The position numbers are program-made. From NCBI RefSeq assembly GCF_057098645.1, contig NZ_CM169472.1: DNA of 64,000 bases, one strand, 5' to 3'. Positions 3,001 through 6,000 of this stretch are shown here, in pieces. Within the stretch, counting starts at the first letter, position 1. Every line of letters starts with the position of its first letter.

Positions 3001-6000
3001 TTCTGATATCGGGGTTGCAAGTTTAAAAATACATTATTGTCTCTGGAATGAAGAGGAATACAATGAAAAATTATCAGTTCCTCCAGTAATTGATGATATC
3101 CCTTCATTACAAAAAAATACTATTGTTTTTCCTAGCGAAGGTAATTTCCCGTGGTCAATATTTAGTAATGACTCGGTAATGTGGGAAACTCAAATCAGTC
3201 AGGATGAATTTGAAAATGCATACTGTCTGATGATTTGGGCAGATCCCATTGGTAGTGCTGCTTTTTTTGATGGTAGTCAATACTGGAAAGGTGTACTCAG
3301 AATTGATGATATGTCTACGCTAAAGGATAATAAAAAGGATGAAGGAAAGAATTATGTAAATCACATTACCGAGGTAAATCTGAAAATATCACAAGGGGTT
3401 ATTTCATATTTTATTGATTTGGTTGAAAAATACAGCTCCGATAGTTTTAATGAACTGAAACTAATACATGATGAAATAAAAAAAGGAAACAGAAATGCAC
3501 TGGGGAGATTAGGTGTAATGGGTCTATCCATAGGGGATAATGATACATGTTATATGTCTATGGCAGTTGATGTTTATGAAGCTAAAAACAGAAATGATAC
3601 AGGCAGGAAAGAAGATCTTTACGATGGCAATTATTATAATGAGCAACGTAAAGTAGCCTTCGGTCCTGATGGTGGTTGTATAAATAACAATCCAATATAT
3701 TACGACCCTGATCATACAACACCTTTCAGCCCTTATTTTGCAGTAAAAGTTAAATGGGGGCAATCAAACATTAGCATATATGATTTTAAATCACCAATAA
3801 AGCAACTATATGCCGAAATGATACGTATTGGTAATGATGGGCGTATATACAGTAATGAGGGCTTTTCTAATCTCAATTGGGGGATTATTGGAAAACAACT
3901 CGAACTTACAAGTAAAGATATGAAAGGTTTTGCTGCTCTTGATCCGAGGTCAAATCATGATGAACATGACGATGCAGCCACAGATATGGGGTATGAAATA
4001 GCAGGTTCGGCTACTTCAGATAAAAATTACCCAGTAAAATTTGACCGGAGGACATTATTTTTCCTCACACTAAAATCACTCAGGGAAAATGATCTCTTTA
4101 CTTGTTTAGGTGCTGAGACTTATAAAGCAAAACAGGAAGCTTTAAAGACAGATCAACAAACCAAAAGATGAAGATAAGCGCTGGAAATTTATGAATAGTG
4201 TTTATCTCATAATAAAAAATCAATGATTTTATCAACGGGAGTGCCGCCTATGCGAGCTGTTATTGTTAAATCATCACCAACATCTACAGGTGGAAAAGTT
4301 TTACTGGGAATAGATATCGTTACAAACGATGGCAACCCCGTTGCTCTTATAGGTATGCAGGCATCCTGTCCTGCCTGTAAAAAAGGTATCGGTGATATTG
4401 TTGCCAAAGGGCCACACCAACAATTTATTAATGGTATAGCGATTGCTCTTGAAGAGGATGTTGTTGCCTGTGGCTGTCCTGAAGGAAGTAATATAGTTTT
4501 ACCATTGACTAAATTGACACAAATTAAATGAGAATCGGTCCCGTTACAATAAACACCTTACTATTAAAATTATGGACCTATTTATATATTAATTCCTTTA
4601 CCCCATAAAGCGGTAAAGGAATCATGTATCATTGGCACTAATAATAAGTCTGAGCACAGATAGTCAATTGTATCACGACGTCTGTTTCAGGCGGCGGGCA
4701 TACTGGTAAGTCGAAACACACCCGTCGTTGTTTGCATCAAGATAATCCGCCCACCACGGCTTCATCTCGCTCCGTTCCTCCAGATATTCAGCCTAGTGAA
4801 TATAAGCAGTCCGAACACGGTTTCTTTCCTGATAGCTCATCTATTTCCGATGGTTTCTTTGCTCCATAACTCCGATCACCGGGAAAATTTTGATTTAGCA
4901 TTTATCAGTCAAACAAAAGGTGGTCAGTCTGGTGGTCTTGACAATCTCAATTTTTTGTTTTAGCTTACCAATCAGCCAGTTAATGGCTACGGCGATCCCA
5001 GTCAGAGGAGCCAAATTCTAAAAATTCGCTTTTTTACCGCAATGTCACTGACCTTAGTTGAACATTGTTTTTTAACGGATAGCGGGTTTTTAACATCTTA
5101 AGCGCCCTCGACCTTTATGGGTGAGGGCGTTTTGCTATGAACGCCATCACCATTTTCCCCTCGATTATAAAACTTGAGTTATTCAGTAGTCTCCCCTCTT
5201 GCAACTCACACCCAAAACTGCCTAACGAAAAGTTATTAATTTTCAATCATATTGCTATCAGGATTTACATTTTTTCGCTGTGCTAGAAAGGGCGCATTTA
5301 TGTTAGCTCGTTCAGGGAAGGTAAGCATGGCTACGAAGAAGAGAAGTGGAGAAGAGATAAATGACCGACAAATCTTATGCGGGATGGGAATTAAACTACG
5401 CCGCTTAACTGCGGGTATCTGCCTGATAACTCAACTTGTGTTCCCTATGGCTGCGGCAGCACAAGGTGTGGTAAACGCCGCAACCCAACAACCAGTTCCT
5501 GCACAAATTGCCATTGCAAATGCCAATACGGTGCCCTACACCCTTGGAGCGCTGGAATCGGCCCAAAGCGTTGCCGAACGTTTCGGTATTTCGGTGGCTG
5601 AGTTACGCAAACTCAACCAGTTTCGTACGTTTGCTCGAGGTTTTGATAATGTCCGCCAGGGTGATGAACTGGATGTCCCGGCACAAGTTAGTGAAAATAA
5701 TTTAACCCCGCCACCGGGTAATAGCAGTGGCAACCTTGAGCAACAAATAGCCAGTACTTCACAGCAAATCGGGTCTCTGCTCGCCGAGGATATGAACAGC
5801 GAGCAAGCGGCAAATATGGCGCGTGGATGGGCCTCTTCTCAGGCTTCAGGCGCAATGACAGACTGGTTAAGCCGCTTCAGTACCGCAAGAATCACGCTGG
5901 GCGTGGATGAAGATTTTAGCCTGAAGAACTCCCAGTTCGATTTTCTCCATCCGTGGTATGAAACGCCTGATAATCTCTTTTTCAGTCAGCATACTCTCCA

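Follow-up and report, generated by a model that had tools for sequence, protein, structure and literature searches.

The window analysed here, a 64,000-nucleotide stretch of the Escherichia coli contig NZ_CM169472.1 (assembly GCF_057098645.1), opens within a fragment of a cluster of type VI secretion system (T6SS) genes and continues into the adhesin gene yeeJ. Between the two lies a short copy of the 3' end of tRNA-Asn, at positions 4998 to 5018. We are highly confident that this fragment is attR and marks where a 13.7-kb integrative island at the tRNA gene asnT of E. coli O145:H28 ends on its right side. The left part of the window contains the following features:

1 to 89, minus strand: 5' end of tssF (gene at 37040-38899 in L001, our locus record for strain RM12761), island cargo; the remainder lies left of the window
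394 to 2508, plus strand: vgrG (tssI), island cargo
2513 to 2931, plus strand: small gene after vgrG (139 aa in RM12761), frameshifted in the window
2903 to 4171, plus strand: gene for a 422-aa protein, about 35% GC
4250 to 4531, plus strand: gene for a PAAR-domain protein, the last in the island
4919 to 4997, plus strand: conserved right arm (the P' arm of attR), with two copies of (A/T)GGTGGTC
4998 to 5018, plus strand: attR core, CCAGTCAGAGGAGCCAAATTC, a direct repeat of the asnT 3' end
5019 to 5327, plus strand: original downstream flank of asnT, collinear with K-12 by alignment and including a hairpin
5328 to 8131, plus strand: 5' part of yeeJ, the chromosomal neighbour of the island, interrupted by an insertion sequence (IS) at 8132

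The window contains CCAGTCAGAGGAGCCA, the 16-mer with which tRNA-Asn ends, in four copies. Of these, three fall within tRNA-Asn(GUU) genes found by ARAGORN, and the fourth is solitary, at 4998-5013 on the plus strand, without a tRNA body 5' of it. A first-pass annotation had proposed that a 16-bp copy of the tRNA-Asn 3' end marks the boundary of a genomic island. The copy is real and its sequence was given correctly, but the coordinates assigned to it, 4989-5004, are 9 bp too far to the left; the bases there read ACGGCGATCCCAGTCA and are not a tRNA end. The distance to yeeJ, estimated at about 320 bp, is 315 bp when measured from the end of the repeat to the yeeJ ATG (5328). Aligned with K-12, the perfect direct repeat shared with asnT is 21 bp long and occupies 4998-5018 on the plus strand; it consists of the 16 nucleotides of the tRNA 3' end (4998-5013) and five more bases, and includes the published 17-bp asn-tRNA attachment site, CCAGTCAGAGGAGCCAA. 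In 100 shuffles the chance expectation for the 16-mer was 0.00, also when one mismatch was allowed. An Rfam scan of 4400-5400 (E<=1) returned no family and no tRNA remnant near the fragment, so no alternative RNA element accounts for the match. That the match has arisen by chance, or belongs to some other conserved element unrelated to tRNA-Asn, we consider exceedingly improbable, given the 21-bp identity, the null expectation, the empty Rfam scan and a context that is explained by the island model.

Comparison with an unoccupied site locates the junctions. In K-12 MG1655 the gene order is mtfA, asnT, yeeJ with no insert between them, which bears out the earlier statement that K-12 carries asnT at the homologous position. 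We aligned this empty site with both O145 junctions in a three-way alignment (A1). The left junction follows K-12 from mtfA through the tRNA and a further AAATTC, and then departs into CTGTTTTCATGC and the integrase gene, int. The right junction is unlike K-12 up to GGCTACGGCGATC, and from the first base of the 21-bp repeat onward is collinear with K-12 into yeeJ; attR itself matches K-12 from CCAGTC onward. The K-12 site thus equals the left flank, one core and the right flank, with homology lost precisely at the repeat; a tRNA gene that has taken a conservative site-specific insertion in its 3' end should show just this signature. These junctions set the length of the perfect repeat at 21 bp. 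K-12 also has a strong hairpin with a T-run directly 3' of asnT. O145 retains this hairpin beside the displaced stub (about 5101-5137, -22.1 kcal/mol). A promoter and terminator scan of 4500-5400 was uninformative, and because the loop is too long for the scanner the hairpin was folded separately. The break at the repeat and the identity of the site as asnT therefore both agree with what had been proposed.

The first 6 kb of the window matches about twenty E. coli O145:H28 chromosomes at 99.9-100%. No compared record equals the window in full; relative to RM12761 it differs by two 1-bp poly-A contractions, a few single-nucleotide polymorphisms, a 1310-bp IS in yeeJ and an extra 849 bp in the yeeJ repeats. 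In RM12761 the order is a prophage at serU, serU, mtfA, tRNA-Asn, int, a gene for a 98-aa hypothetical protein, an 'integrase domain' pseudogene, higA, a gene for an 83-aa helix-turn-helix protein, one for a 152-aa hypothetical protein, tssG (-), tssF (-), vgrG (+), the 139-aa gene, the 422-aa gene, the PAAR gene, the repeat and yeeJ. The intact asnT lies at 2,467,052-2,467,127 (+), directly after mtfA, and int at 2,467,289-2,468,551 (+), about 161 bp past asnT on the same strand, encoding a 420-aa tyrosine integrase. As the window begins within tssF, the intact asnT would lie about 8.7 kb to its left. An intact tRNA-Asn after mtfA, followed by int, is likewise present in RM13514 and in the chicken isolate AHM8C212RI. 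The intact tRNA gene and the integrase whose location to the left of the window the first-pass annotation had named as a check are thus found in O145:H28 genomes. Within the 46-kb locus there are two exact copies of the 17-mer, one in asnT and one in the fragment, 13,696 bp apart. No internal degenerate attachment site, of the kind a tandem composite island would contain, was found in this locus with up to three mismatches allowed. The tssG, tssF, vgrG and PAAR genes are located between the two repeat copies, which places the vgrG module within the island at asnT, as had been suggested. Directly upstream of mtfA-asnT in RM12761 we also observed a lambdoid prophage with a frameshifted integrase at the tRNA-Ser gene serU (L001 1-28944), so that two adjacent tRNA genes, serU and asnT, are both occupied by mobile elements in this strain.

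The sequence immediately left of the repeat is not tRNA. The 80-100 bp at this position (about 4919-4997) are present in 736 E. coli genomes, and we inspected three examples. In NC101 this arm is the right end of the pks island, adjoining ldtA; in 2014C-3655 it closes an Rhs-carrying island by cbl, at the asnU site; and in AHM8C212RI it closes the same T6SS-fragment island at asnT. By alignment, the homology extends to the attachment core plus AAATT, and beyond that point each sequence continues into its locus-specific tRNA flank. The arms share a short motif. Two direct copies of (A/T)GGTGGTC(AG) stand left of attR (4968-4994 region), and the 161 bp between asnT and int hold one GGTGGTC copy and an inverted near-copy (L001 30235-30285). 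In both arms together there are 4 matches in 309 bp, against a background of 0.95 per kb in the window, and we regard these motifs as candidate arm-type binding sites for the integrase. Paauw et al. 2010 gave the 17-bp attachment site of the high-pathogenicity island (HPI) and other asn-tRNA islands (PMC2801613, Table 1), flanked by ...ggcaaaggcgatc on one side and ttttctgttttcatgc (ttttctgttttcatgcttcc) on the other. Both ends of the O145 island match these junction flanks, the left end with the bases that follow AAATTC in the K-12 comparison.

The asn tRNA genes are multicopy, with four in K-12, and the fragment might be what remains of a second, decayed tRNA-Asn gene, such as a tandem duplicate of asnT reduced by deletion to a 3' stub. 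The length of the stub, however, is exactly that of the published attachment site and its flank. To its left is the arm that is conserved at the right ends of unrelated islands (asnU, asnV/W), to its right is the K-12 asnT flank, and the Rfam scan found no tRNA remnant around it. We therefore consider a decayed duplicate very improbable, and return to the reading of the fragment as attR, on which asnT, int, the K-12 empty site, the repeats and the arms all agree, as the earlier description of an attR-type scar of integrase-mediated insertion had anticipated.

The integrase of the O145 island has three Pfam domains, Arm-DNA-bind_3 (PF13356), Phage_int_M (PF22022) and Phage_integrase (PF00589). 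Its best match among solved structures in the PDB is 3jtz, the arm-binding domain of a 'CP4-like integrase' (E = 4e-34), which we take to be a domain of the HPI integrase. The O145 enzyme shares 69% identity with the HPI integrase from a sequence type 131 (ST131) genome and 70% with the pks integrase from strain O18. At the DNA level, a gene of this integrase family is present in 2645 of 5426 complete E. coli genomes, and this integrase type in 416 of the 5426. With a regenerated tRNA gene, direct repeats, an empty site, the integrase domains and the conserved arms all present, the island belongs with the asn-tRNA islands of the HPI and pks family that use a P4-type tyrosine integrase.

The catalytic residues of the O145 integrase depart from this pattern at one position. 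R239, K278, H342, H369 and Y379 are kept, but residue 345 is a lysine, so that the catalytic set is not complete. The motif reads HGLK in O145, compared with HGLR in YPE10 and AHM8C212RI and HGFR in HPI and pks, and one base substitution, AGG to AAG, accounts for it (RM12761 codon 345, L001 31322-31324). Judged by motif order, position 345 is the Arg-II of the tyrosine-recombinase active site. Of the 416 genomes that have this type of integrase, 27 contain the exact AAG-bearing 63-mer, and nearly all of these are O145. Across the tyrosine-recombinase family Arg-II is Arg in 99.1% and Lys in 0.5% of members, and the equivalent Cre mutant, R292K, is moderately active and accumulates the covalent intermediate, indicating a ligation defect (PMC2943603). 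Taken with these data, a lysine at Arg-II would suggest an O145 integrase that is weakened rather than necessarily dead. The substitution bears on the current activity of the enzyme and not on the identity of the junction. A second gene on the island also resembles tyrosine recombinases; it is shorter (293 aa in its intact form) and only weakly similar to XerC and phage integrases (L001 32851-33734, and locus records L005 4208-5092 and L004 1-276). It forms part of the conserved backbone in islands of this type and is a pseudogene in O145.

From these sequences we infer how the island came to lie at asnT. A circular form carrying attP would have recombined with attB, the 3' end of asnT, in a reaction catalysed by the P4-type tyrosine integrase of the island. 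The core copy brought in by the island would have rebuilt a complete asnT at the left junction, by int, while the original tRNA 3' end, its downstream flank and the terminator hairpin would have been pushed 13.7 kb to the right, to their present position before yeeJ.

Several points weigh against this account. Both asnT and int lie outside the window and are read from genomes that match its first 6 kb at 99.9-100%. Residue 345 is Arg in all 137 of the diverse relatives compared (the full-length representatives aligned from a scan of 1.8 billion proteins) and Lys in O145, so the enzyme of today may differ from the fully active form by which the junction was made. A search of the island proteins against NCBIfam and PHROGs recognised neither an excisionase nor a recombination directionality factor and hit only a Ner/SfsB-like repressor and HigA. 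Excision and a circular form are predictions from sequence alone. Finally, the same island occupies the same site in an unrelated chicken isolate, so that O145 may owe it to inheritance or homologous recombination instead of to an integration event of its own.

The last point leads to a different history, in which the junction is an old scar and the island arrived together with its flanks, either by descent or by homologous recombination through the mtfA and yeeJ flanks. This history is compatible with the fragment being attR. It is favoured by the occurrence of the same island at the same site in the chicken isolates AHM8C212RI and AHM8C160RI, by the presence of the integrase type in 416 of the 5426 genomes and by the K345 change. 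Transfer by homologous recombination has also been proposed for HPI in E. coli, and an earlier paper (PMC2606025) deals with the role of intraspecies recombination in how pathogenicity islands spread through that species. Relative to AHM8C212RI the island backbone is 96.7-98.0% identical and the flanks 98.8-99.8%, and a backbone more diverged than its flanks would fit an inherited scar and an integration in O145's own history alike. We rate arrival with the flanks at slightly below an even chance. For the island as it now stands, whichever way it came, a lysine at Arg-II and the lack of a recognisable excisionase suggest that in O145:H28 it is probably poorly mobile or fixed.

The site is the one used by HPI, as had been noted before. 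In the ST131 strain MB1341, mtfA is followed by asnT, int, ybtS to fyuA and a truncated yeeJ, and HPI is described as targeting asn tRNA at its 3' end, in E. coli at asnT (PMC10562709). HPI and the O145 island share the 17-bp core, similar ends and an integrase with the same three domains (the 69% pair above). They differ in that HPI of MB1341 has no right-hand repeat whereas the O145 island keeps both, in that the HPI integrase has Arg at 345 whereas the O145 enzyme has Lys, and in their cargo, which is yersiniabactin genes in HPI and a T6SS fragment in O145. No yersiniabactin locus (ybt, irp, fyuA), as required for HPI proper, lies between the repeats of the O145 island. We considered whether the island might be a degraded HPI and rejected this, on the absence of ybt genes and the integrase identity of only 69%. 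The pks island has the same attachment core at its right end and a preceding arm about 81% identical over about 100 bp, but carries clb cargo at a different asn locus and measures about 54 kb against 13.7 kb. The Rhs island of 2014C-3655 at asnU has a right arm 97% identical to that of O145, with an Rhs core protein as cargo; its integrase is of the same type, going by a match of 62 in 63 bases only. In YPE10 a 4.2-kb mini-island at asnT has an integrase of the same type (97.4% nucleotide identity) with an internal stop, almost no cargo and no right repeat. The 2014C-3655 and YPE10 islands both carry the same second 'integrase domain' gene as the O145 island. The integration module, comprising the integrase, the 17-bp core and the conserved arms, is therefore of the same family as those of HPI and pks, and it is the cargo that differs.

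The island itself has been listed before. Additional file 2 of Cooper et al. 2014 (BMC Genomics 15:17, PMC3893438) gives IE_03 of RM13516 as 2,467,129-2,480,809, 13,681 bp, at 'tRNA (asnT)', with 'Type VI secretion system effectors' as content. On this entry, IE_03 of the O145:H28 strain RM13516 is the same element as the present island. RM13516 and RM12761 share coordinates in the island region, which puts the right end of IE_03 1-2 nucleotides into the repeat (2,480,808-2,480,828). On the strength of that entry the island and its insertion site were already known. The main text does not mention asn, T6SS or yeeJ, the island appearing in the supplementary table only, and in the accessible parts of the paper neither the direct repeat nor the arms come up, nor the kinship of the integrase with those of HPI and pks, nor K345. 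In RM13514 IE_03 is listed at 12,434 bp, the shorter length being explained by an IS3-family element after vgrG (locus record L009, 12042-13496) and a deletion. The deletion took the cassette behind vgrG, the PAAR gene, attR and the 5' end of yeeJ; attR is thus kept in the Belgian-type strains RM12761 and RM13516 and lost in the United States outbreak strain RM13514. The attR is a standard one, in a known island family, and the island is already on record. Only one point is mildly new: an integrase allele with Lys in place of Arg-II is fixed in the O145:H28 lineage.

The cargo has the appearance of a remnant. Of a full T6SS, with its core set of tssA-M, hcp and clpV, the island holds tssG, tssF, vgrG and PAAR only; its other cargo comprises higA, the Ner/SfsB-like regulator and the second recombinase pseudogene. 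The tssG-tssF-vgrG block is rare, with 29 genomes covering at least 80% of it, and among the matches listed, which are the same island, there was no complete related T6SS cluster in E. coli. In a published survey most O145:H28 strains lacked T6SS-1 and T6SS-3 genes altogether and had only 5 of the 22 for T6SS-2 (PMC9144400). A rare block in a serotype with no complete T6SS makes the cargo look like a fossil. Behind vgrG, the 139-aa and 422-aa genes form a cassette (2513-4171) of about 35% GC, compared with 50-57% elsewhere in the island, and the segment from the 3' end of vgrG to PAAR is replaced by unrelated sequence at the same place in AHM8C212RI. The 422-aa protein matched no Pfam, NCBIfam or PHROGs family, and for the two cassette proteins together there was no Pfam or NCBIfam match and no informative PHROG. 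By position only, the 422-aa protein is a putative T6SS effector, and it is possible that the cassette encodes an orphan effector and immunity pair in a host without a T6SS. The small gene is frameshifted by a run of seven A at 2523, compared with eight in RM12761, and we observed a second contraction at 22371 (A6 compared with A7 in RM12761), which splits yeeO. The two contractions could be real pseudogenisation or homopolymer sequencing errors.

Right of the island, yeeJ is itself interrupted. The IS at 8132-9441 (1310 bp) is absent from RM12761 and flanked by a 3-bp duplication, CAA (8129-8131 and 9442-9444). It has terminal inverted repeats TGAACCGCCCCGGG and encodes OrfA (108 aa) and OrfB (296 aa), as an IS3-family element; we presume it to be IS629-like. 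A further segment of about 849 bases (10216-11064) is extra to RM12761 in the Ig-repeat region of yeeJ. Part of it shares 86% identity with the repeat unit before it, suggesting that the number of repeats varies in this adhesin pseudogene.

The three other tRNA-Asn genes of the window, as predicted by ARAGORN, are unoccupied:

20977 to 21052, minus strand: asnW, intact, with the same attachment core
22800 to 22875, plus strand: asnU, intact
25209 to 25284, plus strand: asnV, intact

Their spacing and the intervening genes are as in YPE10, which is insert-free at all three. The sequence CCAGTCAGAGGAGCCAAATT is common to all four asn tRNA loci, which accounts for family members occupying more than one asn gene. 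The pks island has its left end by yeeO-asnW in O18 and its right end by ldtA, the asnV flank, in NC101, which suggests a rearrangement between asn tRNA copies in pks-positive strains.

It is conceivable, though we hold it to be rather doubtful as a whole, that in O145:H28 a fixed K345 and the lack of an excisionase have locked in place an island whose intact int and two attachment sites still give it a fully mobile look, and that this integrase type carries exchangeable T6SS tip and toxin cassettes (vgrG-effector-PAAR at asnT, Rhs at asnU) that persist even without a T6SS. More directly, the asnT island of O145:H28 now has exact borders, the right one at 4998-5018 of the window. The T6SS fragment is placed within horizontally acquired DNA, and its integration module is linked to those of HPI and pks. 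In annotation the region is better labelled a decaying element than an active secretion system, given the partial T6SS, the pseudogenised second recombinase, the altered catalytic arginine and the yeeJ pseudogene. Within O145:H28, lineages could be marked by the K345 allele and by whether attR is kept or lost.

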